From Escherichia phage vB_EcoP_ACG-C91: DNA of 43,731 nt. Shown here piece after piece: positions 1 through 43,731 of this stretch. The stretch lies in sequence record NC_019403.1; one strand, given 5' to 3'. Positions within the stretch are counted from its first letter, which is position 1; each line of letters begins with the position of its first letter. Both the position numbers and the translations under genes were made by a program. Below the pieces are notes generated by a model, which saw only the letters and a program-made list of their open reading frames with translations, was not told the origin of the DNA and did no database searches.

Positions 1-569
1 TCTCGCCCTCGCCCCGCCGGACGGCCCCCCCCCCTACGGGTGGACTTGCCGCTTGGCTTAGGAATTGGGCTAGGCTGGTCCGTCTTCGACGGGCTGGGCA
101 GGGGCTTGCCTTGTACTCGCTTAGTGGTACACAAGGGAGAAGGGCTAGGAAGCGCTAGGGCGCGCCTTAGTATTGGACAAGGTGATTGCCTTAGTGCAAC
201 CGCTTAGGGCTTACACAGGCCGTTTTAGGGCTATTCCTGAGCGTTTGACAGGGTATGCGGGTGTGGGCTATCTGTTCCTTTGCTCCTCACTTCGTTCGTC
301 GCTGCGACTACCTGATGTGTACCTTAGTTATTACCTTGATGGATAGCTTAGGTTAGCCTTAGTGCTTAGCTTAGTATCAACTTAGTAGTGTACCTTAGTT
401 AGTCTTAGTGCCAGACCTCAGTGATTGCACATGCAAGCATGTAAGATGCTAATAGGTCGCGGTCGGTAGACCGCTAAGAAGAAGTAATAGTAATAAGATG
501 CAGTAGGAGGAACACCAGAAACCTAGCCAACCTAGCCTATCCTAGCTCTGTATCTATTGCTTTCCTTAG

Positions 570-585
570 TCTCACATGTTAGACA
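570..585. repeat. Imperfect copy of conserved palindrome (GTCTCACATGTtAGAC)
   Basis: Matches the 16-bp palindrome found at five other sites with one mismatch. Confidence 0.4.
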
Positions 586-652
586 ACCTAGGATTAACTT
601 AGTAGTTGTGACATGTATCACATAAATAGTCTATCTTAGTGAAATTTAGTGT

Positions 653-680
653 TGACACAGGCCATCAACAGGTATACATT
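653..680 (+). promoter_or_regulatory. Candidate host sigma70 promoter (TTGACA, 16-bp spacer, ATACAT)
   Basis: Perfect -35 hexamer TTGACA at 653-658 with a plausible -10 at 675-680; early region of a T7-like phage is transcribed by host RNAP. Confidence 0.3.
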
Positions 681-835
681 AGCAATCACTGAGACGGACC
701 TAGCAAGCTGTCTCAGGTTATAAGCAGGAGAATTGATGCGTAAGCCATAGCTAGTGGATGTAGTCGCATGAAGGCTTGAGTAAGGGGCCGTTTAATACCT
801 TCTTCCTCTGGAGACAACGCTTATAACACTGCTCT

Positions 836-864
836 TTAACAATCTGCTTAGTGTAACCTATGTA
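836..864 (+). promoter_or_regulatory. Candidate host sigma70 promoter (TTAACA, 17-bp spacer, TATGTA)
   Basis: -35-like and -10-like hexamers with 17-bp spacing, about 40 bp upstream of the first small ORF; overlaps conserved GCTCTTTAACAAT element. Confidence 0.3.
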
Positions 865-901
865 TGCCGTGGTTAATTACTTATTGAATGAGGAATTAAC
901 T

Positions 902-997
902 ATGAATTATGAAGAAATGTATGAAGTCTATTTCGACTCATTAGATGAAGGAGAAGAAGCATTATCCTTCGCTGAGTTTGTGGAGGCTTTATCATGA
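902..997 (+). CDS. Small early hypothetical protein (31 aa, acidic)
   Basis: ATG preceded by GAGGA; stop overlaps ATG of next ORF (ATGA); below ORF-track size cutoff. Confidence 0.35.
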   Translation: MNYEEMYEVYFDSLDEGEEALSFAEFVEALS

Positions 998-1221
998 AAG
1001 TACAGGTAAGGGCTTACAACATGCCAGTTGATGAGATTCAGCACTTTCTAGATAAAGGCTATGATTTATGTAAGATGCGCACACCAGATAACTATGACTA
1101 CTCACCTAAATATCTGCATTATATTGATCTTAAGATGGGTAAGAAGTTAGTTATTACAGGTACTGCATATAACCGCATTATCAATGTTCTTAAAGAAGGT
1201 GCTAGTCATGACATTAAATAA
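994..1221 (+). CDS. Early hypothetical protein (75 aa)
   Basis: ORF track; translationally coupled to upstream small ORF. Confidence 0.55.
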   Translation: MKVQVRAYNMPVDEIQHFLDKGYDLCKMRTPDNYDYSPKYLHYIDLKMGKKLVITGTAYNRIINVLKEGASHDIK

Positions 1222-1387
1222 CCGTGAACTATCCGTTATCTTTACTCTGTTATGCTACATGATACGTAACGGTGAACTACTAACTAATGATGAGCAAGCC
1301 TTGTATGACCGATTTATCAATGATGGTTGGACCGATACGGTTAATCAATACCGTAACATGATAGATGAGTTGAGGGAGGGTAAATAA
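1208..1387 (+). CDS. Early hypothetical protein (59 aa; start taken at internal ATG 1208)
   Basis: ORF track 1184..1387; ATG 1208 has GAAGGTG upstream and minimal overlap with previous gene. Confidence 0.5.
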   Translation: MTLNNRELSVIFTLLCYMIRNGELLTNDEQALYDRFINDGWTDTVNQYRNMIDELREGK

Positions 1388-1611
1388 TGTATCAACATGA
1401 GGTATTCTTTGAATCATCTAGCGAAGCTATTCGTCTCCGCGATGATATGATGCAAGCTGGCGTAGGTGTTGATGTATATCACTATTTGATAGATTACGAC
1501 ACTGAATATCACCGAGTTACCTTAGTATCTGAGTATGACAACCAAGTTATTACTGAGTATCTAGGCAGTGAAGATTATGATTACGATGAAGTAATCACGA
1601 CAAATCTCTAA
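1387..1611 (+). CDS. Early hypothetical protein (74 aa, acidic)
   Basis: ORF track; TAAATAATG start/stop overlap; GAGGG RBS. Confidence 0.55.
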   Translation: MYQHEVFFESSSEAIRLRDDMMQAGVGVDVYHYLIDYDTEYHRVTLVSEYDNQVITEYLGSEDYDYDEVITTNL

Positions 1612-1740
1612 ATTAACTATTGACAACCACGGCATACAAGGCTACATTAAGCATCAAGACGGCGACGTCTTTAAACATCCCCGCTCTTTAACAATCTGGT
1701 TTGTGTCTTGATAGGCTTACTAACAGAAAGGTAAATTATC

Positions 1741-1908
1741 ATGGAAACTTTAATCGTTACCACTACAATCAACGGCGTAAGTATCAGCATAACTAAGTAT
1801 TCTTCCGAAGAGTATGAAGTGAATCACGGAATAGCTGCTATGGTGTATGACAACTTGGCAGATGCCGTGGAGCATTGGATACAGTCATGTAAGGCTGCAA
1901 TTAAGTAG
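1741..1908 (+). CDS. Early hypothetical protein (55 aa)
   Basis: ATG with AAAGG RBS; not in ORF track because under 60 aa. Confidence 0.45.
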   Translation: METLIVTTTINGVSISITKYSSEEYEVNHGIAAMVYDNLADAVEHWIQSCKAAIK

Positions 1909-2062
1909 GAAAGATAAGGCTGGCACTAGCCAGCCTATCAAGGCACAAGCCACGCTCTTTAACAATATGGGTAGTCGCTTCTTAGTCTGGATAGGTTAAA
2001 CCTAGGAGATTCTCTTGAGTCTCCTATAATGTAACCTAACTAACTAAATGAGGATTAATAAC

Positions 2063-2419
2063 ATGGCTATGTCTAATATGACTTACTCTCAGGTTTACAA
2101 CACCGCTCATGCTGCATTAGTTGAACGTATCTGGGATGATGCTATTGATTGTATCGATAACGCACATGATGCAATCCATGAGGTGGCGGATAGTACTGTA
2201 CCAATCTATTATGCTGACATCTTCTCGGTGATGGCTAGTGAAGGCATCGACCACTTCTTCGAGGATTCTGGCTTAATGCCAGACACTAAGGATGTGACGG
2301 TCGTACTACAAGCCCGTATTTATGAACAACTCACCATTGATTTACGGGAACGTGTTCAAGATATGATTGATGCGTACATCGATTCCGCTGAGGATTCAGA
2401 AGAAGAGGAGGAAGAATGA
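2063..2419 (+). CDS. ocr: Ocr-like anti-restriction protein (T7 gp0.3 homolog; DNA mimic inhibiting type I restriction-modification)
   Basis: Protein begins MAMSNMTY and contains [42 protein letters not shown] and an acidic C-terminus, matching the T7 Ocr sequence as I recall it; GAGGA RBS 7 nt upstream of ATG 2063. Confidence 0.85.
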
Positions 2420-2532
2420 AGATGGAAAGGCAATATAACTTCATCTTCTCAGACGGTGTAACCCTGAAATGTTCCTTACGATTTGCGCAGATTCGTGAGG
2501 AAGTACTAGGAACTACATACAAGCTATTTAGC
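2416..2532 (+). CDS. Possible small early ORF (38 aa) overlapping ocr stop
   Basis: ATG 2416 preceded by GGAGG (inside the ocr acidic tail); position analogous to T7 0.4-0.6 small genes; no homology recognised. Confidence 0.25.
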
Positions 2533-2549
2533 TGACACTATAAGAGAAG
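2526..2549 (+). promoter_or_regulatory. Phage-RNAP promoter-like sequence (ATTTAGCTGACACTATAAGAG)
   Basis: Close to the SP6 consensus ATTTAGGTGACACTATAGAAG; upstream of ORF 2612. Confidence 0.4.
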
Positions 2550-2611
2550 ACTTAACAAGGCGTTGCTACGGTAGCGCCTGATTAAACTTTCACTTACTAG
2601 GAGTTGAGATT

Positions 2612-2797
2612 ATGAAAACCTTGATTGGATGCTTCTTGTTGGCTTCTCTTGCTCTGGCATTTACCGCTAAAGCTGGTTATGACGCTTATAAAGTAGAACA
2701 AGCCCAGCAAGACTGGGCCAAAAAGTTCAACTTGTGCAGCAAGAGCAACACCTACGAGTACTGCAACAAAACACTAAGACACTTATGGAAAGAGTAA
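2612..2797 (+). CDS. Small secreted early protein (61 aa) with N-terminal signal peptide
   Basis: MKTLIGCFLLASLALAFTAKA-GYD: hydrophobic core plus AxA-type cleavage site; mature part has 2 Cys; AGGAG RBS. Confidence 0.6.
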   Translation: MKTLIGCFLLASLALAFTAKAGYDAYKVEQAQQDWAKKFNLCSKSNTYEYCNKTLRHLWKE

Positions 2798-2831
2798 CTA
2801 GCCTATAGCCTACCTGAGTGGGCTATGTGAT

Positions 2832-2852
2832 ATTTACTTACACTATAAGGTG
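2832..2852 (+). promoter_or_regulatory. Weak phage-promoter-like sequence (ATTTACTTACACTATAAGG)
   Basis: Partial match to the CACTATAG core; immediately upstream of ORF 2859. Confidence 0.3.
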
Positions 2853-2858
2853 ATTACT

Positions 2859-3743
2859 ATGACTACTGAAAACACCCTCGTGTCTGTCCGTGAAGCTGCA
2901 ACCGCTGAAATCAAGCAACATTTAGACAATATCGGCACTTCTTACATCAAAGTTGGTGCTTGTCTGAATGAATTACGCGGTGATTTCGAAGGTCAAAAAG
3001 ACTTTTTAGCTTATGTAGAATCAGAGTTCGGCATCAAGAAGGCACAATGCTACAAGCTGATGAGTGTAGCCCGTGTCTTTGAAGGAGACGAACGCTTTAA
3101 AGGTGTGGCTATGCGTGTAATGCTGGCGCTTGTTCCTTTCGCTGATGAAAATATAATCATGGAGAAGGCCGCAGAACTCGCCGCAGATGGCAAGCTGGAC
3201 ACTAACGCCGTAAACGCCTTGATTGAGCCTAAGAAAGAGATAAAGACCGAAACGGTACAATCTAAGGCTGAGACAGTAAAACCGCAGGAGAGCGCGACTG
3301 AGGCCGCAGAATCACAGGAAATGCAAGCGCCGCAGGTAGTGCCACCCGCTAGCGAGCAGGAGGCCGACGAATCAGCACCATGGGGAGAGGAAAGCAAGCC
3401 GGAGGCACCGAAGGCAGCGCCGCTGGATAACACGGCTAATACCGAAAACGCCGCTATGGCTAGCCTCTTAGCACAAATTAAGGCACTGACCGAGCAATTA
3501 CAGGCAGCTAATGACCGCATTGCCTCCTTAAGCAGCGCACGCGAAAGCAAGAAGGCAGCCGCGCCTATGCTGCCGCAATTCAAATCTTCCTGCTTCTATG
3601 CTCGCTTAGGTTTAAGCGCTGAGGAGGCAACGAAGAAAACAGCAGTTAACAAGGCACGCCGCGAACTGGTTAAGCTAGGCTACGGCGAAGGCCATGAAGC
3701 ATGGCCCTTAATCTCTGAGGCAGTAGAAGAATTAACTAAGTAA
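2859..3743 (+). CDS. Early protein with DUF3102-like N-terminal domain and low-complexity acidic/Ala/Gln-rich C-terminal half
   Basis: Motif IKVGACLNELRGDFEGQKDFLAYVESEFGIKKAQCYKLMSVARVF resembles the DUF3102 signature (G-x-x-L-x-E...G-x-F-x-x-W/Y...G-I/F-S-x-x-x-A-x-x-Y-M-x-L/V-A) as I recall it; C-terminal half is compositionally biased with a coiled-coil-like stretch. Confidence 0.7.
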   Translation: MTTENTLVSVREAATAEIKQHLDNIGTSYIKVGACLNELRGDFEGQKDFLAYVESEFGIKKAQCYKLMSVARVFEGDERFKGVAMRVMLALVPFADENIIMEKAAELAADGKLDTNAVNALIEPKKEIKTETVQSKAETVKPQESATEAAESQEMQAPQVVPPASEQEADESAPWGEESKPEAPKAAPLDNTANTENAAMASLLAQIKALTEQLQAANDRIASLSSARESKKAAAPMLPQFKSSCFYARLGLSAEEATKKTAVNKARRELVKLGYGEGHEAWPLISEAVEELTK

Positions 3744-3806: not shown

Positions 3807-6434
3807 ATGCAAGACCTACACGCTATTCAACTTCAACTTGAAGAAGAAATGTTTAACGGCGGTATCCGTCGCTTTGAAGCGGACCAACAACGCCAGATTG
3901 CATCCGGTAATGAATCAGACACGGCATGGAATCGCCGCTTATTGTCCGAGTTAATCGCGCCAATGGCTGAAGGTATTCAGGCATACAAGGAAGAGTATGA
4001 AGGTAAAAGAGGCCGTGCACCGCGTGCATTAGCTTTCATTAACTGCGTAGAAAACGAAGTGGCAGCATATATCACGATGAAAATCGTTATGGATATGCTG
4101 AATACAGACGTTACCTTACAAGCAATCGCTATGAATGTAGCGGACCGCATCGAAGACCAAGTACGTTTTAGCAAGCTGGAAGGTCACGCAGCTAAGTACT
4201 TTGAGAAAGTGAAGAAGTCGCTTAAGGCTAGCAAGACTAAATCTTATCGTCATGCGCACAACGTAGCGGTAGTAGCTGAGAAATCTGTTGCTGACCGTGA
4301 CGCGGATTTCTCCCGTTGGGAGGCATGGCCTAAAGATACCTTGCTACAAATCGGTATGACCTTGCTAGAAATACTGGAAAATAGTGTATTCTTCAATGGT
4401 CAGCCTGTCTTTCTTCGCACCTTGCGCACTAATGGTGGCAAGCATGGCGTTTACTACTTACAGACCAGTGAACACGTAGGGGAATGGATTACAGCATTTA
4501 AAGAACATGTAGCGCAACTTAGCCCGGCTTATGCACCTTGCGTTATACCTCCGCGTCCGTGGGTTTCTCCTTTTAATGGTGGATTTCATACTGAGAAAGT
4601 AGCAAGCCGTATTCGTCTGGTTAAAGGCAGCCGTGAACACGTCCGTAAGCTGACCAAAAAGCAAATGCCAGCGGTTTACAAGGCTGTTAACGCTTTGCAG
4701 GCGACTAAATGGCAGGTTAACAAGGAAGTATTACAGGTAGTTGAAGACGTTATACGCCTTGATTTAGGTTATGGTGTGCCTTCATTTAAGCCGCTAATTG
4801 ACCGTGAGAACAAGCCAGCTAATCCCGTTCCTCTTGAGTTTCAGCACCTGCGAGGCCGTGAACTGAAAGAAATGCTCACGCCGGAACAATGGCAAGCCTT
4901 CATTAACTGGAAAGGTGAATGCACCAAGCTGTACACCGCAGAAACTAAGCGCGGCAGCAAGTCGGCTGCTACGGTCCGCATGGTTGGTCAGGCCCGTAAA
5001 TACAGCCAGTTTGACGCTATTTATTTTGTGTATGCACTGGATAGCCGCAGCCGTGTCTACGCGCAATCTAGCACGCTCTCACCGCAATCAAACGACTTAG
5101 GCAAAGCATTACTCCGCTTTACCGAAGGGCAGCGCCTTGATAGCACTGAGGCGCTTAAATGGTTTTTGGTGAACGGGGCGAATAACTGGGGTTGGGATAA
5201 GAAGACTTTCGACGTGCGCACCGCTAACGTGCTGGATGGCGAATTTCAAGACATGTGCCGCGACATTGCAGCCGATCCTCTAACCTTCACTCAATGGGTA
5301 AATGCTGATTCCCCTTACGGATTCCTTGCATGGTGCTTTGAATATGCTCGTTATTTAGATGCGCTGGATGAAGGTACACAAGACCAATTCATGACGCACC
5401 TACCCGTCCATCAAGACGGTAGTTGCTCTGGTATCCAGCACTATAGCGCGATGTTACGCGATGAAGTAGGTGCGAAAGCGGTAAACCTTAAGCCCTCTGA
5501 CTCCCCTCAAGATATTTATGGTGCCGTTGCGCAGGTAGTAATTCAGAAGAACTATGCATACATGAATGCAGAGGATGCGGAAACCTTCACTTCTGGCAGC
5601 GTGACTTTAACAGGTGCGGAACTGCGTAGCATGGCTAGTGCGTGGGATATGATAGGAATCACTCGCGGCCTAACCAAAAAGCCCGTAATGACACTGCCTT
5701 ACGGCAGCACACGTCTAACCTGCCGTGAGTCAGTGATTGATTATATCGTTGATTTAGAAGAAAAAGAGGCCCAACGGGCTATTGCGGAAGGGCGTACCGC
5801 CAATCCTGTACACCCTTTTGATAATGACCGTAAGGATGGCCTGACACCTAGCGCAGCTTATAACTATATGACAGCTTTAATCTGGCCTTCTATTTCGGAA
5901 GTGGTTAAAGCTCCTATAGTGGCAATGAAAATGATTCGTCAACTTGCCCGTTTCGCAGCTAAAAGGAATGAAGGCTTAGAGTATCCCTTGCCCACAGGCT
6001 TCATTCTGCAACAAAAGATTATGGCTACTGATATGCTCCGCGTATCCACTTGCCTGATGGGAGAAATCAAGATGAGTCTACAGATTGAAACGGACGTAGT
6101 GGATGAAACGGCCATGATGGGCGCTGCTGCTCCTAACTTCGTGCACGGTCATGATGCTAGCCACCTGATTCTAACGGTGTGCGACCTAGTGGATAAAGGT
6201 ATTACCTCCATTGCAGTTATCCATGATTCTTTCGGTACTCATGCAGGCCGCACCGCAGACCTACGTGACAGTCTAAGGGCAGAAATGGTGAAGATGTATC
6301 AAGGCCGTAACGCTCTGCAAAGCCTGTTAGATGAGCATGAAGAGCGCTGGTTAGTAGACACCGGAATCCAAGTGCCAGAGCAAGGAGAGTTTGACCTTAA
6401 CGAAATCTTAGTATCTGACTATTGCTTCGCATAA
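3807..6434 (+). CDS. Single-subunit DNA-dependent RNA polymerase (SP6-type)
   Basis: 875 aa; N-terminus [32 protein letters not shown] and long internal stretches match SP6 RNAP as I recall it; catalytic IHDSFGT motif; C-terminal ...FA. Confidence 0.97.
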
Positions 6435-6442: not shown

Positions 6443-6475
6443 GGCCATCCCTTCGGGAGTGGCCTTTTTCTTTTA
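6443..6475 (+). terminator. Rho-independent terminator after RNAP gene
   Basis: GGCCATCCC-TTCG-GGAGTGGCC hairpin followed by TTTTTCTTTT. Confidence 0.6.
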
Positions 6476-6509
6476 CCTACTACCTGTAACATTTCATTAA
6501 CATAAAAGT

Positions 6510-6525
6510 GTCTCACATGTGAGAC
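6510..6525. repeat. Conserved palindrome GTCTCACATGTGAGAC (copy 1)
   Basis: Perfect 16-bp palindrome immediately upstream of phage promoter. Confidence 0.7.
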
Positions 6526-6527: not shown

Positions 6528-6548
6528 ATTTACCGGACACTATAGGAT
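6528..6548 (+). promoter_or_regulatory. Phage-RNAP promoter (ATTTACCGGACACTATAGGAT)
   Basis: Matches the window consensus ATTTAC(T/C)GGACACTATAGAAG, SP6-like CACTATAG core. Confidence 0.7.
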
Positions 6549-6690: not shown

Positions 6691-6706
6691 GTCTCACATG
6701 TGAGAC
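6691..6706. repeat. Conserved palindrome GTCTCACATGTGAGAC (copy 2)
   Basis: Perfect palindrome again followed by a promoter-like sequence. Confidence 0.7.
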
Positions 6707-6759: not shown

Positions 6760-6888
6760 ATGCGTAACTTTGAGAAGATGACCCGTAAAGCTAACCGTTT
6801 TGACATGGAAGAAGGGCAGAAGAAAGGCAAGAAGCTGAATAAACCTGTCCGTGATCGTGCATCTAAACGCGCTGCGTGGGAGTTCTAA
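6760..6888 (+). CDS. Small basic protein, T7 gp1.1-like (42 aa)
   Basis: MRNFEKMTRKANRFDMEEGQKKGKKLNKPVRDRASKRAAWEF resembles T7 gene 1.1 protein (MRNFEKMTKRSN...) as I recall it; GGAG RBS. Confidence 0.6.
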   Translation: MRNFEKMTRKANRFDMEEGQKKGKKLNKPVRDRASKRAAWEF

Positions 6889-6891: not shown

Positions 6892-8880
6892 ATGGCTATT
6901 ATTCAGAATGTACCGTGTCCTGCCTGTCAAAAGAATGGACATGATATTACTGGCAACCATCTTATGATATTTGAGGATGGCGCGGGTTACTGTAACCGTG
7001 GGCACTTCCATGATAATGGCAGGCCATACTACCATAAGCCCGAAGGTGGCATCGAGATAACCGAGTTGCCCATTACTGGCAATATCAAATATACACCTTC
7101 TCAATTCAAAGAGATGGAGACGGAAGGGAAGATAAGCGACCCTAAGTTGCGCGCCATCGCACTTGGTGGTATGCGTATGAAAGACCGTTGGGAGGTCATG
7201 AATGAGCAAGAAAGGGCAGACCAAGAAGCAGAGTGGAAACTTGATGTTGAATGGTTCCTCACGCTTAAGCGTAAGAACCTTGTGTCCCGTCACATTCGAG
7301 GTGACATCGCAGCAATGTACGATGTGCGCGTTGGACACGATGAAGAGGGAAGAGTCAACCGTCACTATTATCCACGATATGAAAAGGGTGTGCTTGTTGG
7401 AGCAAAATGCCGGACGTTGCCGAAGGATTTTAAGTTCGGACACCTAGGTAAACTCTTTGGTATGCAAGACCTTTTCGGTATGAACACTTTGTCTCACGTG
7501 TTAGACAAGGGGAGACGAAAGGATTGCTTGCTTATTGTAGGTGGTGAACTTGATGCACTAGCAGCGCAGCAGATGCTCCTTGATTCTGCCAAGGGTACTA
7601 AGTGGGAAGGCCAGCCATACCATGTATGGTCTGTCAACAAAGGCGAGTCTTGCCTTGAAGAGATAGTGCAGAACCGTGAGCATATCGCCCAATTCAAGAA
7701 GATTATATGGGGTTTTGATGGGGATGAGGTAGGGCAGAAGCAGAACCAACAAGCTGCTCGCCTGTTTCCTGGCAAATCCTACATCCTCGAATATCCCTCT
7801 GGTTGCAAAGATGCTAACAAGGCATTGATGGCTGGCAAGGCTAAAGAGTTTGTTGATGCTTGGTTTAATGCCAAGTCATCTGATGAAGTCTTTGGTAGCC
7901 AGATTAAATCTATCGCATCTCAAAGGGGTAAGCTCAAGGCTGCACGTCCAGAGCAAGGGTTATCATGGCCTTGGCCTAAGCTGAACAAGGTAACGCTAGG
8001 TATTCGTAAGAACCAGCTTATCATTGTAGGTGCAGGTTCTGGTGTAGGTAAGACTGAGTTCCTTCGCGAAGTGGTTAAGCACCTCATTGAAGAACACGGT
8101 GAATCTGTAGGCATCATTTCTACAGAAGACCCAATGGTCAAGGTGTCCCGTGCTTTTATCGGCAAGTGGATTGATAAGCGTATTGAGTTACCGCCAACCA
8201 ACGACCCGAAAGAAGACGGATACCGTGAGGTGTTCGACTACACCGAGGAAGAAGCTAACGCTGCCATTGATTATGTGGCTGATACAGGAAAGCTATTTGT
8301 GGCTGACCTAGAAGGCGACTATTCTATGGAGAAGGTAGAGCAAACTTGCCTAGAGTTTGAGGCTATGGGCATTTCTAATATCATCATTGATAACTTAACG
8401 GGGATTAAATTAGATGAGCGTGCTTTTGGTGGGAAGGTTGGTGCACTTGATGAATGCGTCAAACGAATTGGTACTATCAAAGACCGACATGCGGTTACGA
8501 TTTTCCTTGTCTCTCACCTTACACGTCCTCCGGCAAACCGTACCCAACACGAAGAAGGTGGCGAAGTTATCCTTTCTGACTTCCGAGGCTCAGGCGCTAT
8601 CGGATTCTGGGCATCTTACGCCTTGGGGATTGAGCGTAATACAAGAGCTGAAACGCTTGATGAAAGGACTACCACGTACATCTCGTGTGTCAAAGACCGC
8701 GATCAAGGTATCTACACTGGAACCAAGGTCATGCTTAAGGGTGACATTCAAACCGGACGTTTAATGGAACCACAAGCTAGAACAAGGTCATTTGATACAG
8801 GTGAAACAAGGCAGCAAGAGGTGCCTGATTTACCGGACACTATAGAAGAGACAACCTTTGACGATGAACAGGAGTTTTAA
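6892..8880 (+). CDS. DNA primase/helicase (T7 gp4-like bifunctional)
   Basis: 662 aa; N-terminal Cys-rich zinc-binding region (CPACQ...CNRGHFH); Walker A GAGSGVGKTEF; acidic C-terminal tail ...DDEQEF. Confidence 0.95.
   Translation: MAIIQNVPCPACQKNGHDITGNHLMIFEDGAGYCNRGHFHDNGRPYYHKPEGGIEITELPITGNIKYTPSQFKEMETEGKISDPKLRAIALGGMRMKDRWEVMNEQERADQEAEWKLDVEWFLTLKRKNLVSRHIRGDIAAMYDVRVGHDEEGRVNRHYYPRYEKGVLVGAKCRTLPKDFKFGHLGKLFGMQDLFGMNTLSHVLDKGRRKDCLLIVGGELDALAAQQMLLDSAKGTKWEGQPYHVWSVNKGESCLEEIVQNREHIAQFKKIIWGFDGDEVGQKQNQQAARLFPGKSYILEYPSGCKDANKALMAGKAKEFVDAWFNAKSSDEVFGSQIKSIASQRGKLKAARPEQGLSWPWPKLNKVTLGIRKNQLIIVGAGSGVGKTEFLREVVKHLIEEHGESVGIISTEDPMVKVSRAFIGKWIDKRIELPPTNDPKEDGYREVFDYTEEEANAAIDYVADTGKLFVADLEGDYSMEKVEQTCLEFEAMGISNIIIDNLTGIKLDERAFGGKVGALDECVKRIGTIKDRHAVTIFLVSHLTRPPANRTQHEEGGEVILSDFRGSGAIGFWASYALGIERNTRAETLDERTTTYISCVKDRDQGIYTGTKVMLKGDIQTGRLMEPQARTRSFDTGETRQQEVPDLPDTIEETTFDDEQEF
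8827..8847 (+). promoter_or_regulatory. Phage-RNAP promoter embedded in the 3' end of the primase/helicase gene
   Basis: ATTTACCGGACACTATAGAAG exact consensus; encodes the DLPDTIEE residues of the helicase tail. Confidence 0.6.
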
Positions 8881-9041
8881 TGGAAATTATTAAACCAGTA
8901 TTGAATATCGGTATTGAAATCCTATTCATGCTTGTGATCGCAGATTATGCTGCACGATATGGATTCAAGAAAGCTGTGAAACTTATCGTTGCATCTGGTT
9001 TTATGATGTCAATGTTCTTTATTGTAACACGCCTTATCTAG
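8880..9041 (+). CDS. Small hydrophobic membrane protein (53 aa)
   Basis: ATG overlaps helicase stop (TAATGG); hydrophobic segments; below ORF-track cutoff. Confidence 0.3.
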   Translation: MEIIKPVLNIGIEILFMLVIADYAARYGFKKAVKLIVASGFMMSMFFIVTRLI

Positions 9042-9055
9042 TGTATTTATCAGGG

Positions 9056-35994: not shown

Positions 35995-36344
35995 CTGAAG
36001 AAGGTTTTGTATTAAGTAAGAAGGGTAAGAGGCTGGCAGGAGCTATCAGAGAAAGAGGCTACCGTACTGTTTCTCTGCGAATTGATGGTAAGACTAAAAC
36101 TTATAAAGTACACAGATTAGTAGCATGGAAGCACGTACCTAATCCTCACAATTATAAGATAGTAAGCCATAAAGATCGCAACCCTTCTAATTGTCATAAA
36201 GACAACCTAGAGTGGTGTACTCAACAGGAGAATACAATACATGCACATTATGGTTGTTTAAACATTGACAACAAGGTTGCTGAAGCTAAACGATTAAGGG
36301 AGGAGGTTGGTCTTACCCTAAAATTGGTAGGCATTTCGGACTAG
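35907..36344 (+). CDS. HNH homing endonuclease (HNH_3 type)
   Basis: GYRTVSLRIDGKTKTYKVHRLVAWKHVPNPHNYKIVSHKDRNPSNCHKDNLEWCTQQEN: canonical HNH motif; start uncertain (ATG 35907 overlaps holin; alternative in-frame GTG 35958). Confidence 0.85.
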   Translation: MVYLREGPNYKTEKKREVYSEVERAGYIITEEGFVLSKKGKRLAGAIRERGYRTVSLRIDGKTKTYKVHRLVAWKHVPNPHNYKIVSHKDRNPSNCHKDNLEWCTQQENTIHAHYGCLNIDNKVAEAKRLREEVGLTLKLVGISD

Positions 36345-36384
36345 ACCACAAGACCGTATGGTACTGGATTAACGGGAGGCGTAC

Positions 36385-36684
36385 ATGAGCGTACACAATA
36401 AACATGCAGCTACAGAGGATGAAGTTGGCATTCTGCATGGTGCTATTACCAAAATCTTCAATAAGAAAGCACAGGCAATACTGGACACTATAGAGGGGGA
36501 CCCCGATGCAGCATTGCATTTAGTATCTGGTAAAGATATTGGTGCTATGTGTAAGTGGGTTCTAGATAACGGCATCACTGCTACACCTGCTGCACAGCAG
36601 GAAGAGTCCAAGTTATCTAAGCGCCTCAAGGCTATCCGAGAGGCATCCAGTGGTAAGAGCATCCAATTCACTAAGGAGGATTGA
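36385..36684 (+). CDS. Terminase small subunit (putative)
   Basis: 99 aa directly upstream of and overlapping large terminase; GGGAGG RBS. Confidence 0.6.
   Translation: MSVHNKHAATEDEVGILHGAITKIFNKKAQAILDTIEGDPDAALHLVSGKDIGAMCKWVLDNGITATPAAQQEESKLSKRLKAIREASSGKSIQFTKED
36470..36492 (+). promoter_or_regulatory. Promoter-like sequence inside small-terminase ORF (ACTGGACACTATAGAGGG)
   Basis: Matches the downstream 15 nt of consensus; upstream part diverged. Confidence 0.35.
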
Positions 36685-38582
36685 TGGCTAAGGCAAGAGA
36701 ATCACAAGCAGAGGCTCTTGCCAGATGGGAGATGTTACAGGAGTTACAGCAGACCTTTCCTTACACAGCAGAAGGTTTGCTTCTCTTTGCAGATACAGTT
36801 ATCCATAACTTGATTGCAGGCAACCCTCATCTGATTCGTATGCAGGCCGATATATTAAAGTTCTTATTCTATGGACATAAGTATCGCCTCATCGAAGCGC
36901 CTCGTGGTATTGCTAAGACAACACTATCAGCAATCTATACAGTATTCCGTATCATCCATGAGCCACATAAACGTATCATGGTTGTATCCCAAAACGCCAA
37001 GCGAGCAGAGGAAATTGCAGGTTGGGTAGTGAAAATCTTCCGTGGCCTAGACTTCCTTGAGTTTATGCTACCGGACATATACGCTGGCGACCGTGCATCC
37101 GTCAAAGCATTTGAGATTCACTACACGTTACGCGGCAGCGATAAGTCACCTTCTGTATCCTGTTACTCTATCGAAGCAGGTATGCAGGGTGCTCGTGCTG
37201 ATATTATTCTAGCAGATGACGTAGAATCGATGCAGAATGCTCGTACAGCAGCAGGTCGTGCCTTGCTTGAGGAATTAACTAAGGAATTTGAATCTATCAA
37301 CCAGTTTGGTGATATTATCTACCTTGGGACACCACAGAATGTAAACTCTATCTACAATAACTTGCCTGCCCGTGGATACTCTGTTCGTATCTGGACGGCA
37401 CGTTATCCTTCAGTAGAACAGGAGCAATGTTATGGTGACTTCCTTGCACCAATGATTGTTCAAGATATGAAGGATAACCCAGCACTTCGCTCTGGCTACG
37501 GTTTGGATGGTAACAGTGGTGCACCTTGCGCACCTGAGATGTATGATGACGAAGTGTTGATTGAGAAGGAAATTTCTCAAGGTGCTGCTAAGTTCCAGCT
37601 TCAGTTTATGCTGAACACTCGCATGATGGATGCTGACAGATACCCACTTCGTCTAAACAATCTAATCTTTACTTCGTTCGGTACAGAGGAAGTCCCTGTG
37701 ATGCCTACGTGGAGTAATGATTCTATTAATATCATTGGCGATGCCCCTAAGTATGGTAACAAGCCTACAGACTTTATGTATAGACCTGTAGCCCGTCCTT
37801 ACGAATGGGGTGCTGTTACCCGTAAGATTATGTATATTGACCCTGCGGGTGGTGGTAAGAACGGGGATGAAACGGGTGTGGCTATCGTCTTCCTGCACGG
37901 CACATTCATTTATGTGTATCAGTGCTTTGGTGTGCCGGGAGGATACCGCGAATCGTCCCTGAATCGCATTGTGCAGGCCGCAAAGCAGGCGGGTGTTAAA
38001 GAGGTATTCATAGAGAAAAACTTCGGCCATGGCGCGTTTGAGGCCGTAATTAAGCCGTACTTTGAGCGAGAGTGGCCTGTGACTCTGGAAGAGGATTACG
38101 CCACCGGACAGAAAGAGTTGCGTATCATTGAAACACTAGAGCCACTAATGGCGGCCCACAGGCTCATCTTCAACTCAGAGATGGTCAAGTCTGATTTTGA
38201 GTCGGTACAGCACTATCCGCTTGAACTACGCATGTCATACAGCCTTTTCAATCAAATGTCGAACATCACGATTGAGAAGAACAGCCTACGACACGATGAC
38301 CGCTTAGACGCTCTGTATGGCGCTATACGGCAATTAACTTCTCAGATAGACTATGACGAGGTTACACGGATTAATCGCCTCAGAGCGCAGGAGATGCGCG
38401 ATTACATCCATGCTATGAACACACCTCACCTCCGTAGGGCAATGCTCTATGGAGATTATGGCACTGAGCGAAGAGTAACCAACACTTCCGTGGCTATGCA
38501 GCAAAGAGTATACGGTCAGAATTACAGGAGTAAATCGGCAAGCAGAAATACACTTTCTGCAAGGATTTCAAGGACTTATTAA
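36684..38582 (+). CDS. Terminase large subunit (DNA maturase, T7 gp19-like)
   Basis: 632 aa; Walker A-like PRGIAKTT; ATG 36684 with AAGGAGG RBS. Confidence 0.9.
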   Translation: MAKARESQAEALARWEMLQELQQTFPYTAEGLLLFADTVIHNLIAGNPHLIRMQADILKFLFYGHKYRLIEAPRGIAKTTLSAIYTVFRIIHEPHKRIMVVSQNAKRAEEIAGWVVKIFRGLDFLEFMLPDIYAGDRASVKAFEIHYTLRGSDKSPSVSCYSIEAGMQGARADIILADDVESMQNARTAAGRALLEELTKEFESINQFGDIIYLGTPQNVNSIYNNLPARGYSVRIWTARYPSVEQEQCYGDFLAPMIVQDMKDNPALRSGYGLDGNSGAPCAPEMYDDEVLIEKEISQGAAKFQLQFMLNTRMMDADRYPLRLNNLIFTSFGTEEVPVMPTWSNDSINIIGDAPKYGNKPTDFMYRPVARPYEWGAVTRKIMYIDPAGGGKNGDETGVAIVFLHGTFIYVYQCFGVPGGYRESSLNRIVQAAKQAGVKEVFIEKNFGHGAFEAVIKPYFEREWPVTLEEDYATGQKELRIIETLEPLMAAHRLIFNSEMVKSDFESVQHYPLELRMSYSLFNQMSNITIEKNSLRHDDRLDALYGAIRQLTSQIDYDEVTRINRLRAQEMRDYIHAMNTPHLRRAMLYGDYGTERRVTNTSVAMQQRVYGQNYRSKSASRNTLSARISRTY

Positions 38583-38601
38583 TTACCGGACACTATAGAA
38601 G
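38582..38601 (+). promoter_or_regulatory. Phage-RNAP promoter immediately after terminase stop
   Basis: AATTACCGGACACTATAGAAG, one mismatch from consensus. Confidence 0.7.
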
Positions 38602-39029: not shown

Positions 39030-39347
39030 ATGTCTAATTATGGAGACGCAGATACTGTTACGGGTCAGGCTTTTCGAGTAAAAACTGTACAAACAACTGC
39101 AACGGCAATTCCTTTGCCTATTGTTGCTGAAGCAGACCTTAAGAAGAAAGATCACCCTATCAACATTAAACACCTATCTGGTAAACAGAAAGGCTCCATG
39201 GTTGCTGTAGAGAAAGCAGGCAACCCCTTGTACATCGCTATTGCACGTGGTAGTGAACCTACTGACCCTTGGGATGCAACCGCTATGGAGTCGACCCCTG
39301 TAACCCCTAAGGGCTTAATTGTAAAAGATGAGGTCAATAGTGCTTAA
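39030..39347 (+). CDS. Hypothetical protein (105 aa), paralog of the previous gene
   Basis: ORF track; AAGAGGAG RBS. Confidence 0.65.
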   Translation: MSNYGDADTVTGQAFRVKTVQTTATAIPLPIVAEADLKKKDHPINIKHLSGKQKGSMVAVEKAGNPLYIAIARGSEPTDPWDATAMESTPVTPKGLIVKDEVNSA

Positions 39348-39684
39348 CAAGTACTTCAAGCGTAAAGAGTTTGCTTGCCGTTGTGGGTGCGGTACATCCA
39401 CTGTTGATGCTGAGTTATTACAGGTAGTCACAGATGTACGTGAGCATTTTGGCGTACCTGTAGTTATCACTTCTGGTCATCGCTGTGCTAAGCACAACGC
39501 CAACGTAGGTGGAGCTAAGAACTCCATGCATCTTACAGGTAAGGCTGCTGATATTAAGGTACAAGGTATTACACCGTATCGTGTATGGTCTTACCTAACA
39601 GCACGATACCCTAATAGATATGGAATTGGGTCTTACCAAAACTTCACTCACATTGATGTACGAGATGGGTGTGCGCGATGGTAA
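39328..39684 (+). CDS. Endolysin, peptidase M15 family (L-alanyl-D-glutamate peptidase-like)
   Basis: SGHRCAKHNANVGGAKNSMHLTGKAADI...THIDVR: zinc-binding H/D/H signature of M15 peptidases; start may be GTG 39340. Confidence 0.85.
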   Translation: MRSIVLNKYFKRKEFACRCGCGTSTVDAELLQVVTDVREHFGVPVVITSGHRCAKHNANVGGAKNSMHLTGKAADIKVQGITPYRVWSYLTARYPNRYGIGSYQNFTHIDVRDGCARW

Positions 39685-40279: not shown

Positions 40280-40361
40280 AGATAAGATAGTGCCGTTCGT
40301 TTGAGCGGCCTATTACTAGCCAATCTTCATAGAGAGGGTTGGAATAGTAATAGGAGATTAT

Positions 40362-40697
40362 ATGGGTAAGTTAACTAAACCAAAGACAACTGGCTTGCTG
40401 CATGGAAACACTCTAGTATCTACCTTGTTAGATAATTTGGTATCTAAGAGGCGTGTTACGTTTGAGAGAGTAGTACCAAGTGAAGATACTAAAATTGAGA
40501 TAGAAGTACCAGCAACAGGAGATTTAGATTCTTCATGGGTATCAATTGTATCATTAAGTACACCTGCACTTTGTACAGCTTGGATCACTAAACTGTCAGA
40601 TACTACTTTAGAGATTCATGTCTTTCATACAGCACAAGTCGAAATAGACATAGAGGTAGATGTTTACTATCTGGGTAAACATGTTATCAGTGCGTAA
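40362..40697 (+). CDS. 111-aa protein upstream of endosialidase (tailspike-locus ORF)
   Basis: ORF track; position and length match the small ORF I recall preceding the endosialidase gene in coliphage K1E (where K1-5 carries a K5 lyase). Confidence 0.65.
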   Translation: MGKLTKPKTTGLLHGNTLVSTLLDNLVSKRRVTFERVVPSEDTKIEIEVPATGDLDSSWVSIVSLSTPALCTAWITKLSDTTLEIHVFHTAQVEIDIEVDVYYLGKHVISA

Positions 40698-40763
40698 GCA
40701 CTGCTTTCACGCAAATTTTCTTAAAGGTTATCATGGTGGTAGCCTTTCAGAAGAGGAGGTAAT

Positions 40764-43199
40764 ATGCTTCAGAGACTTGGGGCTTCTTTGGTAAAATTTA
40801 AAAGTAAACTGCTGAACTCTGCATATCGCAACCTTGATGATAAGCTAACGGAGTTAGTATCATTAAAAGATTTCGGTGCTAAAGGGGACGGAGTTACTAA
40901 CGATAACGCAGCAGTGGTTGCAGCTATGGCTACTGGTAAGCGTATCGATGGGGCAGGCGCTACTTATAAGGTAGATGCACTACCTGACATGGAACGCTTC
41001 TACAATACGAGATTTGTATGGGAGAGGGTTGCAGGTCAACCTCTTTACTATGTAAGTCAGGGTTTTATTAATGGTGAGTTGTATAAGATTACAGACAACC
41101 CGTACTACAACGCTTGGCCTCAAGATAAAGCCTTTGTATACGAGAACGTAATTTACGCACCTTATATGGGTAGTGACCGTCACGGTGTTAGCCGTCTCCA
41201 TGTGTCATGGGTTAAGTCTGGTGACGATGGTCAAACATGGTCTACTCCAGAGTGGCTTACTGACTTGCACCCAGAGTATCCTACAGTGAACTATCATTGT
41301 ATGAGTATGGGTGTCTGCCGTAACCGCCTATTTGCTATGATTGAAACACGTACCTTAGCGAAGAACGCACTTACAAATTGTGCGCTATGGGATCGCCCTA
41401 TGTCTCGCAGTTTGCATCTCACTGGTGGTATCACGAAGGCAGCAAATCAGCGATATGCAACAATCCATGTACCTGATCACGGGCTGTTTGTGGGTGACTT
41501 TGTTAACTTCTCTAACTCTGCGGTAACAGGTGTATCTGGTGATATGAAGGTTGCAACGGTAATAGATAGGGACAACTTCACGGTTCTTACACCTAACCAG
41601 CAGGCCTCAGATTTGAATAACGCTGGAAAGAACTGGCATATGGGTACTTCATTCCATAAATCGCCATGGCGTAAGACAGATCTTGGCTTGATTCCTCGTG
41701 TTACTGAAGTACATAGCTTTGCTGCTATTGATAACAACGGCTTTGTTATGGGTTATCACCAAGGCGGTGCAGCTCCACGCGAAGTTGGACTATTCTACTT
41801 CCCTAACGCTTTCGATAATCCAGCGAACTATGTTCGTCGTCAGATACCTTCAGAGTATGAGCCAGATGCCGCAGAACCCTGCATCAAGTATTACGATGGT
41901 GTATTGTACCTCATCACCCGTGGTACTAGAAGCGATAGATTGGGAAGCTCTTTGCATCGCAGTAGAGATATAGGTCAGACTTGGGAGTCACTGAGATTTC
42001 CACATAATGTGCATCATACCACTTTACCATTTGCTAAAGTAGGCGATGAGCTTATTATGTTTGGTTCAGAGCGTGCAGAAAATGAATGGGAAGCAGGTGC
42101 ACCAGATGATCGTTACAAGGCATCTTATCCTCGTACCTTCTATGCACGATTGAATGTAAACAAGTGGAGTGCAGATGACATTGAGTGGGTGAACATCACA
42201 GACCAAATCTATCAGGGTGATATTGTAAACTCTAGTGTAGGTGTAGGTTCTGTTGTAGTTAAAGACAGCTATATCTACTACATCTTTGGTGGCGAAAACC
42301 ATTTCAACCCAATGACTTATGGTGACAACAAAGGTAAAGACCCATTTACGGGACATGGACACCCTACTGATATATACTGCTATAAGATGCAGATTGCAAA
42401 CGACACTCGTGTATCTCGTAAGTTCACATATGGTGCAACACCGGGTCAGGCTATACCTACCTTCATGGGCACTGATGGTGTACGAGATATTCCTGCACCT
42501 TTGTACTTCTCAAACGACATCACTACCGAGGATGCTAAAGTTGGACACTTGACTCTTAGAGCAACTACCAGTGCCAACATTAGGTCTGAAGTGCAGATGG
42601 AAGGTGAGTACGGTTTTATTGCTAAGGCTGTTCCAAAGACCAACCCATCAGGTCAACGTTTACTTCTTTGTGGTGGAGAAGGGACTTCATCTTCCACAGG
42701 TGCACAGATAACGTTGCATGGCGCTAATTCAAGTAAACCTAAGCGTATCACCTATAACGGGAATGAACACCTATTCCAAGGTGCACCAATCATGCCTGCT
42801 GTAGATAACCAGTTTGCTGCTGGCGGACCTCGTAACCGATTCACTACTATCTACTTAGGTAGTGACCCTGTTACCACTTCCGATGCTGACCATAAGTATG
42901 GTATCTCTGGTATTGACACCAAGGTATTAAAGGCTTGGAGTCTTGTTGGCTTCAAACAGTACGGTTTGAATAGTGAAGCAGAACGAAACCTTGATAGTGT
43001 ACACTTTGGTGTTTTGGCTCAGGACATCGTAGCTGCTTTTGAAGCTGAAGGTTTGGATGCCATCAAGTACGGGATTGTGTCCTTCGAAGAAGGTAGGTAT
43101 GGTGTAAGGTATAGTGAAGTCCTCATTCTAGAGGCTGCTTATACTCGCTATCGTCTAGATAAATTAGAGGAGATGTATGCCACTAATAAAGTCAGTTAA
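40764..43199 (+). CDS. Endosialidase (endo-N-acetylneuraminidase) tailspike with C-terminal intramolecular chaperone domain
   Basis: 811 aa; two Asp-boxes (SGDDGQTWS, SRDIGQTWES); C-terminal ...GISGIDTKVLKAWSLVGFKQYGLNSEAERNLDSVHFGVLAQDIVAAFEAEGLDAIKYGIVSFEE... typical of the auto-cleaving chaperone domain; AGGAGG RBS. Confidence 0.9.
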   Translation: MLQRLGASLVKFKSKLLNSAYRNLDDKLTELVSLKDFGAKGDGVTNDNAAVVAAMATGKRIDGAGATYKVDALPDMERFYNTRFVWERVAGQPLYYVSQGFINGELYKITDNPYYNAWPQDKAFVYENVIYAPYMGSDRHGVSRLHVSWVKSGDDGQTWSTPEWLTDLHPEYPTVNYHCMSMGVCRNRLFAMIETRTLAKNALTNCALWDRPMSRSLHLTGGITKAANQRYATIHVPDHGLFVGDFVNFSNSAVTGVSGDMKVATVIDRDNFTVLTPNQQASDLNNAGKNWHMGTSFHKSPWRKTDLGLIPRVTEVHSFAAIDNNGFVMGYHQGGAAPREVGLFYFPNAFDNPANYVRRQIPSEYEPDAAEPCIKYYDGVLYLITRGTRSDRLGSSLHRSRDIGQTWESLRFPHNVHHTTLPFAKVGDELIMFGSERAENEWEAGAPDDRYKASYPRTFYARLNVNKWSADDIEWVNITDQIYQGDIVNSSVGVGSVVVKDSYIYYIFGGENHFNPMTYGDNKGKDPFTGHGHPTDIYCYKMQIANDTRVSRKFTYGATPGQAIPTFMGTDGVRDIPAPLYFSNDITTEDAKVGHLTLRATTSANIRSEVQMEGEYGFIAKAVPKTNPSGQRLLLCGGEGTSSSTGAQITLHGANSSKPKRITYNGNEHLFQGAPIMPAVDNQFAAGGPRNRFTTIYLGSDPVTTSDADHKYGISGIDTKVLKAWSLVGFKQYGLNSEAERNLDSVHFGVLAQDIVAAFEAEGLDAIKYGIVSFEEGRYGVRYSEVLILEAAYTRYRLDKLEEMYATNKVS

Positions 43200-43326
43200 G
43201 CAAAGTATTGTACGACAGAACACAGAAGAACTCATTCAATCAGGACGTGACCCTAAGCAGGCTTATGCCATTGCCAAGGATGTACAACGTCGTGCCTTGA
43301 AGAAGCCTTCTGCATCTTCTGCGTAA
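43177..43326 (+). CDS. Small basic protein (49 aa) overlapping endosialidase 3' end
   Basis: ATG 43177 with GAGGAG RBS at 6 nt; below ORF-track cutoff. Confidence 0.35.
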   Translation: MPLIKSVKQSIVRQNTEELIQSGRDPKQAYAIAKDVQRRALKKPSASSA

Positions 43327-43329
43327 GCA

Positions 43330-43731
43330 GGTTAATATCTTAGTGTACACAAGGGCAGACCTATGATAGCTCACAGCACACCTATGAGTGCCGCTCTGGA
43401 GTCTATGACTTGTTCCCTGACTATCTAGGTTTGCTCTTAGTGTGTTTCAAAGGAGGTATGTATGCTGTATATAATGGTTGGTAGCTTATGGGTAATCATG
43501 GCTTTCTTCTTTCTAGCATGGTTGTTAGGTTGGAGGCCAAGCTGTTCATAGGGTGCACCTTAGTGTTGTACAAGGAGGGTGTAGGTATGCTGTCTTTGTT
43601 GTGTATACTTAGTGATATGCTAAGTCGTAAGAGGTACATTCTTAGTGAAGACCAAATAAGGGATGAGAGGATACGGAGGTCGCTCACAAAGTAACCAAAG
43701 TCAAAATTTTGATATAGGCGTGTGTCAGCTC
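43330..43731. repeat. Right terminal non-coding region with CTTAGTG-containing short repeats and duplicated RBS-like elements
   Basis: cttagtgtacacaaggg, ctcttagtgtg, caccttagtgttgtacaaggaggg, tacttagtgatatgc, cattcttagtgaag; mirrors left-end repeat content. Confidence 0.4.

Follow-up and report, generated by a model that had tools for sequence, protein, structure and literature searches.

A Vectrevirus podophage genome of the K1E/K1-5 branch, probably from a new species, with candidate regulatory elements of the SP6 group

Introduction

The genomes, virion structures, RNA polymerase and endosialidase of K1E- and K1-5-like phages are already well characterised, and sequences exist for dozens of close relatives. 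The direct terminal repeats of the reference genomes measure 288 bp in K1E, 234 bp in K1-5 and 174 bp in SP6. For K1E-like phages, terminal repeats of 250–289 bp have been described, and the presence of Ocr and gp1.1 has been mentioned (PMC5582158). We analysed the complete 43,731-nucleotide stretch of sequence record NC_019403.1, Escherichia phage vB_EcoP_ACG-C91 (hereafter the window), and compared its RNA polymerase, promoters, tailspike locus, ends and early genes with those of K1E, K1-5, SP6 and T7. A first-pass annotation of the same DNA had described a near-complete SP6-like podophage of the K1E/K1-5 type with mosaic T7-type early genes. We are highly confident that the window represents the complete non-redundant genome of a lytic Vectrevirus podophage infecting K1-capsulated Escherichia coli.

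Results

Genome-wide similarity and taxonomic placement

Megablast searches with both halves of the window against 50,697 phage records returned matches to SP6-group phages only. The top records all belonged to Vectrevirus, namely fTuEco01, two records named "K1E", K1-5 and many K1-specific isolates, which aligned at 92–94% identity across 97–98% of the first 25 kb and at 88–91% identity across 93–98% of the rest of the window. We expressed whole-genome similarity as blastn coverage multiplied by identity, a measure of our own that differs from VIRIDIC. The values were 91.7 for KY435490, 89.7 for fTuEco01, 88.6 for K1E (AM084415), 84.7 for K1-5, 53.9 for SP6 and 0.6 for T7. The nearest records are thus all Vectrevirus, and the earlier placement among the SP6-like podophages of the K1E/K1-5 type is borne out, with best matches in the SP6 group and in no other lineage. 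The length of the window is also close to those of SP6 (43,769 bp), K1-5 (44,385 bp) and K1E (45,251 bp), as had been claimed.

Under the rules of the International Committee on Taxonomy of Viruses (ICTV), members of a genus share at least ~70% genome-wide nucleotide similarity and members of a species at least 95%. The similarity to the K1-5 and K1E records (84.7–91.7%) lies above the genus threshold, which SP6, the representative of Zindervirus, does not reach. On these values we place the genome in the genus Vectrevirus (Autographiviridae, Molineuxvirinae), on the K1E/K1-5 branch of the SP6 group and outside Zindervirus. The species threshold was reached neither for Vectrevirus K1E nor for Vectrevirus K15, the best value among the 50,697 records being that of KY435490. 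Because the similarity stays below 95% to all records, the genome is probably a new species, although a further member of a well-known phage type.

The gene content is in line with this placement. Nearly all proteins are 85–100% identical to their Vectrevirus counterparts, gene by gene, and the Pfam and PHROG assignments span the full gene set of the T7 supergroup. The 49 plus-strand ORFs (open reading frames) occupy 90% of the window and include every gene with Pfam or PHROG support, which agrees with the one-strand layout noted at first reading; no supported gene was found on the minus strand of the 43,731 bp. Scans of the window returned no tRNA genes and no Rfam matches. The one-strand layout in a genome of 40–45 kb and the T7-type single-subunit polymerase encoded at 3807–6434 are both features of Autographiviridae.

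RNA polymerase, phage promoters and terminators

The polymerase gene and the elements recognised along the map are as follows.

3807–6434, + strand: single-subunit RNA polymerase (PF00940, 1e-88; PF14700, 2e-31)
2526–2543, + strand: weak phage-promoter-like site between the ORFs 2416–2535 and 2612–2797
6528–6545, + strand: phage promoter
6712–6729, + strand: phage promoter, GACAGTATAG variant
8828–8845, + strand: phage promoter
9715–9732, + strand: phage promoter variant (ATTTTGCCGACACTATAG), conserved in K1E and K1-5
13245–13262, + strand: phage promoter
14014–14031, + strand: phage promoter
15160–15177, + strand: phage promoter
18325–18342, + strand: phage promoter variant (ATTTAGTTGACACTATAG)
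23400–23417, + strand: phage promoter before the capsid gene
36476–36493, + strand: promoter-like site (CAATACTGGACACTATAG) inside the small-terminase gene, conserved in K1E and K1-5
38581–38598, + strand: phage promoter
40259–40276, + strand: phage promoter of the tailspike operon
6443–6478, + strand: predicted intrinsic terminator of early transcription (GGCCATCCC-TTCG-GGAGTGGCC followed by TTTTTCTTTT), read from the sequence
15663–15690, + strand: terminator-like hairpin followed by CTTTTG, after the gene at 15233–15604
24684–24718, + strand: strong terminator directly 3' of the capsid gene, at the position of the T-phi terminator of T7

The RNA polymerase is 99% identical to those of K1E and K1-5, 85% to that of SP6 and 36% to that of T7, and is of the SP6 type, as had been proposed. 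Its specificity loop is the same as in K1E/K1-5; at the residue that aligns with Asn748 (N748) of T7 it has Ser, and SP6 has Arg. This difference fits the promoter difference from SP6. The promoter core CACTATAG was found at 14 places (2.1 expected), all but one on the plus strand, and 13 sites match the consensus (21–23 nt) ATTTAC(C/T)GGACACTATAGAAG; their positions are those found in K1E and K1-5 and their sequence is nearly the same. We derived the promoter consensuses directly from the genomes. That of SP6, ATTTAGGTGACACTATAG, has the core GACACTATAG in common with the window but departs from it at −12 to −10, where SP6 has GGT and the window C(C/T)G, whereas T7 promoters are of the different CGACTCACTATAG type. 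The promoters had been called SP6-type, which is correct for the core; their specificity, judged from the compared promoter sets and the identical loop, is that of K1E/K1-5 and of Vectrevirus. The 13 promoters, together with terminators after the polymerase and capsid genes, match the described punctuation of the map.

Tailspike locus

34793–35758, + strand: tailspike adaptor, homologue of K1E gp37, with a Phage_T7_tail N-terminal domain
40362–40697, + strand: 111-residue ORF, homologue of K1E gp46 (phrog_15083, 3e-69)
40764–43199, + strand: endosialidase tailspike (811 residues) with a C-terminal intramolecular chaperone; five endosialidase Pfam domains and Peptidase_S74

The tailspike locus had been called K1E-like because of a 111-residue ORF followed by an endosialidase, and both genes were found as described. 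The complete endoN domain set is present, with PF12218, PF12217, PF12195, PF12219 and PF13884 each above its cut-off, and the protein matches the K1F endoNF structures 1V0E and 3GVL as well as 3GW6. Its architecture comprises an N-terminal extension, a β-propeller with an inserted β-barrel, a stalk and a self-cleaving C-terminal chaperone. The endosialidase is 92% identical to K1E gp47 and 91% to its K1-5 counterpart. The adaptor shares 84% identity with K1E gp37, and its match among solved structures is the "tail adaptor protein" of PDB entry 7y22 (4e-87). With the adaptor, the promoter at 40259, the 111-residue ORF and the endosialidase, and without a K5 lyase, the locus has the composition of the single-specificity K1E type.

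The 111-residue ORF is 81–84% identical to K1E gp46 and its fTuEco01 counterpart. Its resemblance to the K1-5 K5 lyase is confined to the N-termini, where its first ~14–27 residues (MGKLTKP.T.G.LH) agree with those of the lyase. This pattern would fit a truncated second tailspike of which just the docking peptide is left.

Genome ends

1–270, no strand assigned: predicted left copy of the direct terminal repeat, beginning TCTCGCCC at the left end of the genome; right copy absent
43692–43731, no strand assigned: conserved segment directly before the point where the right terminal repeat would start

Positions 1–270 of the window align both to the right repeat of K1E (44964–45251) and to K1E from position 1. 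The last base of the window corresponds to K1E 44963, the base preceding the right repeat, and the equivalent positions in K1-5 and SP6 agree within 1–2 bases. No repeat was found between the two ends of the window itself. Because the window begins and stops where the repeats of K1E, K1-5 and SP6 have their boundaries, we read it as a full unit genome carrying a single copy of the repeat (~270 bp), only the second copy being missing; the virion DNA should be ~44.0 kb long.

The final 40–48 bp show 97–98% identity to K1E 44924–44963, K1-5 44103–44149 and SP6 43550–43597, far above the local background, and the segment 43692–43731 is probably a packaging or concatemer-junction/processing signal. 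The heptamer CTTAGTG occurs six times in the first 853 nt and five times in the last 400 nt (43339–43647), always on the plus strand, out of 23 copies in the genome (7.4 expected). This clustering at the genome ends recalls the short repeats flanking the terminal repeats of T7.

Ocr, gp1.1 and allele exchange

2063–2419, + strand: Ocr, DNA-mimic anti-restriction protein; the ORF opens at 2048, with the probable start MAMSN at 2063, as in T7
6760–6888, + strand: homologue of gp1.1, 42 residues (PF08200, E = 8e-16; 58.6 bits, cut-off 21)

Ocr matches PF08684 with E = 6e-40 (136 bits, cut-off 25), and its residues 1–117 align over the full length with the T7 Ocr structure 1S7Z (3.9e-39). The protein contains 29 acidic and 5 basic residues (net charge −24) and is predicted to inhibit type I restriction-modification (and BREX). 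The gp1.1 homologue has the characteristics of its family, being basic, ~42 residues long and encoded just 3' of the polymerase gene. The first-pass annotation had assigned it to the early region; the gene lies instead 3' of the RNA polymerase gene and behind two phage promoters, as in T7.

The two genes differ in their relationships. The gp1.1 homologue is 100% identical to K1E gp8, 78% to its SP6 counterpart and 56% to T7 gp1.1, and looks vertically inherited. The Ocr allele of the window is 63% identical to that of T7, 59% to that of SP6 and 50% to those of K1E and K1-5, and is thus marginally closer to T7. SP6 and T7 are even more alike in Ocr (77%), although their polymerases share only 36% identity. 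In a tblastn survey, the allele of the window recurred at >90% identity in ~40 other records; the next matches were T7-like phages (63–68%), then SP6 and then the K1E-type allele. Only Ocr is phylogenetically incongruent by these comparisons and carries, in our reading, the real mosaic signal. As the Ocr identities are discordant with those of the polymerase and the allele is present in ~40 records, Ocr appears to have passed between the T7-like and the SP6-like phages, and also from one Vectrevirus genome to another, an exchange that is old, widespread and not peculiar to this genome.

Both genes are already annotated in fTuEco01, K1E and SP6, and we regard them as standard equipment of the phage group, not as an unusual T7 graft. 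The early genes as a set are not closer to T7 than to the SP6 group, in contrast to what a recently acquired module would show. The description of mosaic T7-type early genes therefore holds in part: Ocr and gp1.1 are real homologues and Ocr is incongruent, but their presence is normal for the group and gp1.1 is that of K1E.

When the genome was scanned in 1-kb tiles, the nearest relative switched between tiles, with identities of ~68 to 100%. The DUF3310/gp1.7-like protein (18384–18869) is 88–89% identical to its SP6 counterpart but 63–70% to those of K1E and K1-5. The capsid protein (23471–24676) is 97% identical to that of K1E, 94% to that of SP6 and 85–87% to those of fTuEco01 and K1-5. The mosaicism is real, yet on these comparisons it is ordinary allele exchange within the genus; the genome is a patchwork of alleles circulating there, ~92% similar to its nearest sequenced relative.

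Early region and boxA sites

652–680, + strand: sigma-70-like early promoter (TTGACA, 17 nt, TACATT; 10 of 12 matches), upstream of the first early ORFs
1620–1648, + strand: second sigma-70-like early promoter (TTGACA, 17 nt, TACATT)
831–841, + strand: rrn-type boxA (GCTCTTTAACA), copy 1, perfect consensus match
1683–1693, + strand: rrn-type boxA (GCTCTTTAACA), copy 2
1954–1964, + strand: rrn-type boxA (GCTCTTTAACA), copy 3, just upstream of ocr
860–1908, + strand: small early ORFs (860–997, 994–1221, 1184–1387, 1387–1611 and 1741–1908) of PHROG families of unknown function
2416–2797, + strand: two small ORFs, 2416–2535 and 2612–2797
2850–3743, + strand: conserved 297-residue protein of the K1E gp6/SP6 gp7 family (phrog_4571, 2e-131)

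The γ-proteobacterial BoxA consensus is GYTCTTTAANA (PMC5725501). Three perfect matches to it (0.23 expected) lie in the window, all on the plus strand and in the host-transcribed early region, each 3' of a sigma-70-like promoter. Other Vectrevirus genomes contain 3–5 copies and SP6 three; the single copy in T7 is at position 813, upstream of gene 0.3. The triple boxA, a set of predicted NusB/NusE sites, suggests Nus-factor antitermination of early transcription.

Among the early genes, the presence of the small ORFs at 860–1908 differs between relatives. The 61-residue ORF at 2612–2797, which K1E and fTuEco01 lack, has 98% identity to K1-5 gp5, and the 297-residue protein is 98% identical to its K1E counterpart and 67% to that of SP6.

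A family of palindromes

569–584, + strand: palindrome copy 1 (GTCTCACATGTTAGAC)
6510–6525, + strand: copy 2, directly upstream of the promoter at 6528
6691–6706, + strand: copy 3, directly upstream of the promoter at 6712
7491–7506, + strand: copy 4, inside the primase/helicase gene
9053–9080, + strand: copy 5 (16-mer at 9059–9074), 13-bp stem, −20 kcal/mol, z = −6.2, followed by CUCUUAU
10269–10296, + strand: copy 6 (16-mer at 10275–10290), 13-bp stem, z = −6.2, followed by UUUUAU
15129–15144, + strand: copy 7, upstream of the promoter at 15160
31558–31585, + strand: copy 8 (16-mer at 31564–31579), SP6-like stem GTCCAAC..GTTGGAC, between two large internal virion protein genes

A 16-nt palindrome, GTCTCAC-NN-GTGAGAC, is present in eight copies in the window (0.08 expected). 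Eight syntenic copies were found in every Vectrevirus genome examined and nine in SP6, but none in T7. Three copies of the window form 13-bp hairpins with U-rich tails, and the two that were folded gave about −18 to −20 kcal/mol with z of about −6. A U-rich tail lies 3' of five copies, and three stand directly before phage promoters.

Among 32 distinct copies, 83% of cells pair, compared with 71.5% in shuffles, and none of 500 shuffles reached 83%. The covariation resides in two core pairs and in the flanks. Stem sequences differ between genera, and the changes compensate one another. When the set was extended to 48 copies, we counted 49 G·U pairs on the sense strand and 11 on the opposite strand. 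Although the copies are not independent, the covariation and the G·U bias favour a hairpin acting at the RNA level. We tentatively propose, as a possibility we would not yet rely on, that the palindrome GTC[T/C][C/A]AC-NN-GT[G/T][G/A]GAC is an undescribed cis-acting signal of the SP6 group. No relevant paper was found in the searchable literature, which does not include the original SP6 and K1-5 genome papers, and the element may already be described there. A site for a host regulator was considered and rejected, as the palindrome is not known to fit the consensus sequences of CRP, LexA, NrdR or MetJ and its stem co-varies by phage genus.

Copies were also observed in metagenomic records. The phage contig IMGVR_UViG_3300005264_000045 (44 kb, 40% GC) has five around its T7-type RNA polymerase and primase/helicase genes and no nucleotide similarity to the window; the palindrome thus extends beyond Vectrevirus and Zindervirus. 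In the unrelated contig IMGVR_UViG_2784746770_000001 (129 kb, 68% GC), three exact copies of GTCTCACATGTGAGAC lie at 964–3019, each within a longer perfect palindrome (up to 44 bp), and six ORFs there gave no Pfam match. As ~14 chance matches were estimated for a collection of that size, these copies may be a coincidence involving a repeat family.

HNH insertion

35770–35994, + strand: holin (PF10746), its C-terminus replaced by the HNH insertion
35958–36344, + strand: free-standing HNH homing-endonuclease gene (HNH_3; phrog_59/959) between the holin and small-terminase genes

Homology to most relatives stops at 35907, inside the holin gene, where a segment of 479 bp (35907–36385) begins that is absent from K1E AM084415, K1-5, SP6 and fTuEco01. 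The insertion is 99% identical in KY435490 and ~78% in three other phages. Compared with KY435490, the window lacks one base near 36303, causing a frameshift of the last ~27 codons. The deletion thereby cuts short the helix-turn-helix-like tail at the C-terminus, and the ATGA that overlaps the start of the small-terminase gene is lost. The frameshift reflects either decay of the homing endonuclease or an error in sequencing.

DNA metabolism, virion, packaging and lysis genes

The remaining genes with assigned functions are listed below. The DNA-metabolism block that starts with the exonuclease spans 15898–20703, and the DNA polymerase is 98–99% identical to those of K1E and K1-5.

6892–8880, + strand: primase/helicase (DnaB_C and Toprim)
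10389–12962, + strand: DNA polymerase (PF00476); ORF limits, the annotated start in relatives lying a few codons downstream
15898–16932, + strand: exonuclease
16917–17330, + strand: endonuclease VII
17290–18330, + strand: phosphoesterase
18384–18869, + strand: DUF3310/gp1.7-like protein
18978–19925, + strand: DNA ligase
20242–20703, + strand: GNAT acetyltransferase
20924–22474, + strand: portal
22474–23394, + strand: scaffold
23471–24676, + strand: major capsid protein
24716–25468, + strand: tail tube A
25453–27870, + strand: nozzle/tube B
27870–28598, + strand: internal virion protein
28598–31546, + strand: internal virion protein with a lysozyme domain
31611–34796, + strand: internal virion protein
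36385–36684, + strand: terminase small subunit
36681–38582, + strand: terminase large subunit, gene uninterrupted
39328–39684, + strand: peptidase M15 endolysin

Discussion

The T7-like early genes could also be explained by a K1E-type backbone that had recently received a T7-derived module (Ocr and gp1.1) by recombination with a T7-like phage. Such a graft would account for the observation that Ocr (63%), gp1.1 (56%) and the DUF3310 protein (44%) are far nearer to T7 than the polymerase (36%) and the other core proteins (25–37%), that nucleotide-level matches to T7 occur in the window only in ocr (70% over 176 nt) and the gene 1.7-like ORF, and that its Ocr is nearer to that of T7 than to that of K1E. 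We nevertheless consider it improbable, because gp1.1 matches K1E gp8 at every residue and has an equivalent location in the genomes of K1E, K1-5 and SP6, and because Ocr was found in every SP6-group genome examined. An identity of 63% also speaks against a recent transfer, and the recurrence of the same allele at >90% identity in ~40 other records, together with the still closer relationship between the Ocr proteins of SP6 and T7, indicates that any exchange is old and group-wide and not a feature of this genome. The alternation of the best-matching relative along the genome and the 1-nt frameshift in the HNH gene might instead point to a chimeric assembly of co-occurring Vectrevirus genomes from a mixed sample, which we judge very unlikely. 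All genes but the HNH gene are intact and in register, the regions 29–35 kb and 40–43 kb are equally far (86–91%) from every known genome and so were not copied from known genomes, and the reference genomes show the same tile-wise mosaicism, as seen in their Ocr and gp23 alleles and in the intron-like insertion in the K1E terminase gene.

A T7-like K1 phage of the Studiervirinae, such as K1F, would have the endosialidase alone in common with the K1E group. The matches of the endosialidase to the K1F endoNF crystal structures and the resemblance of Ocr and gp1.1 to those of T7 are compatible with it, but a polymerase that is 36% identical to that of T7 and 99% to that of K1E, promoters of the GACACTATAG type in place of CGACTCACTATAG and a genome similarity to T7 of 0.6% refute this identity, to which we attach next to no probability. 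Some points do weigh against our assignment to a complete lytic K1-specific Vectrevirus. No public record reaches at least 95% similarity genome-wide, and the exact endosialidase protein had no match in an exact-protein look-up. With a single repeat copy in the window, the terminal repeat is a prediction from the alignments to K1E, K1-5 and SP6, and host range, lytic lifestyle and regulation are predicted from homology.

Assuming this assignment, the infection cycle can be outlined by homology with T7, SP6 and K1E. The sequence features and homologies are observed; we infer from them the timing, the host range and what boxA and the hairpins do. Host RNA polymerase would start at the sigma-70 promoters near the left end and transcribe the early genes, possibly assisted by the three rrn-type boxA sites. 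The early products would include the DNA mimic Ocr, blocking type I restriction, and the phage RNA polymerase, and early transcription would end at the terminator at 6443–6478. The phage polymerase would then use the ~13 K1E-type promoters to express the genes for DNA metabolism, virion, lysis and packaging from one strand. The palindrome, as an RNA hairpin, might be read by a specific factor such as the phage polymerase, an RNase or a phage protein, and could attenuate, process or stabilise middle transcripts, functionally standing in for the RNase III sites of T7. In the virion, the gp37-like adaptor would hold the endosialidase tailspike, and the enzyme would degrade the poly-α-2,8-sialic acid of the K1 capsule.

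The genome carries little weight for basic biology, and what is new in it comes down to a probable new species and some leads on regulatory elements. Its practical value is that of one more lytic phage genome specific for the K1 capsule, probably distinct at the species level and with a divergent allele of the endosialidase, of relevance to therapy collections directed at neonatal-meningitis and urinary-tract E. coli. The triple boxA and the hairpin family offer cheap, testable leads on how transcription is organised in the SP6 group. The case of Ocr suggests that transfer between T7-like and SP6-like phages is faster for anti-restriction genes than for their core genes.

Among the known phages, KY435490 (phage "K1E", host E. 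coli IHE3034) is most like the window, with 99.4% of the window aligned at 92.3% identity, the same gene order, the same T7/SP6-like Ocr allele (98%) and the HNH insertion at the same place (99%). It differs by ~8% nucleotide divergence, with tiles 1–1000, 9001–10000 and 17001–18000 only 73–76% identical, and by the lack of the 1-nt HNH deletion; its record is circularly permuted and reverse-complemented relative to the window. K1E AM084415, the type genome of Vectrevirus K1E, agrees in gp1.1, in the polymerase (99%) and in the tailspike locus, with the same adaptor family, the 111-residue ORF (81%) and the endosialidase (92%). It has a different, shorter Ocr allele (50%), the extra small ORFs gp8.5 and gp12, no HNH gene between the holin and small-terminase genes, and a homing endonuclease splitting the large-terminase gene, which is intact in the window. 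K1-5 (Vectrevirus K15) has the backbone in common, but in place of the 111-residue ORF of the window it encodes a complete K5 lyase tailspike. SP6 (Zindervirus) shares the genome plan, Ocr, gp1.1, the boxA sites and, at syntenic positions, the palindrome family with the stem variant GTC(T/C)AAC..GTTGGAC, whereas its tailspikes are P22-like O-antigen spikes. T7 (Teseptimavirus) follows a similar overall strategy, with host polymerase for the early genes and then phage polymerase, and with terminal repeats; it shares Ocr, gp1.1, the holin and terminase families and a terminator after the capsid gene. In contrast, its core proteins are only 25–37% identical to those of the window, it has tail fibres in place of adaptor and tailspike, and it possesses one boxA and none of the palindromic elements.

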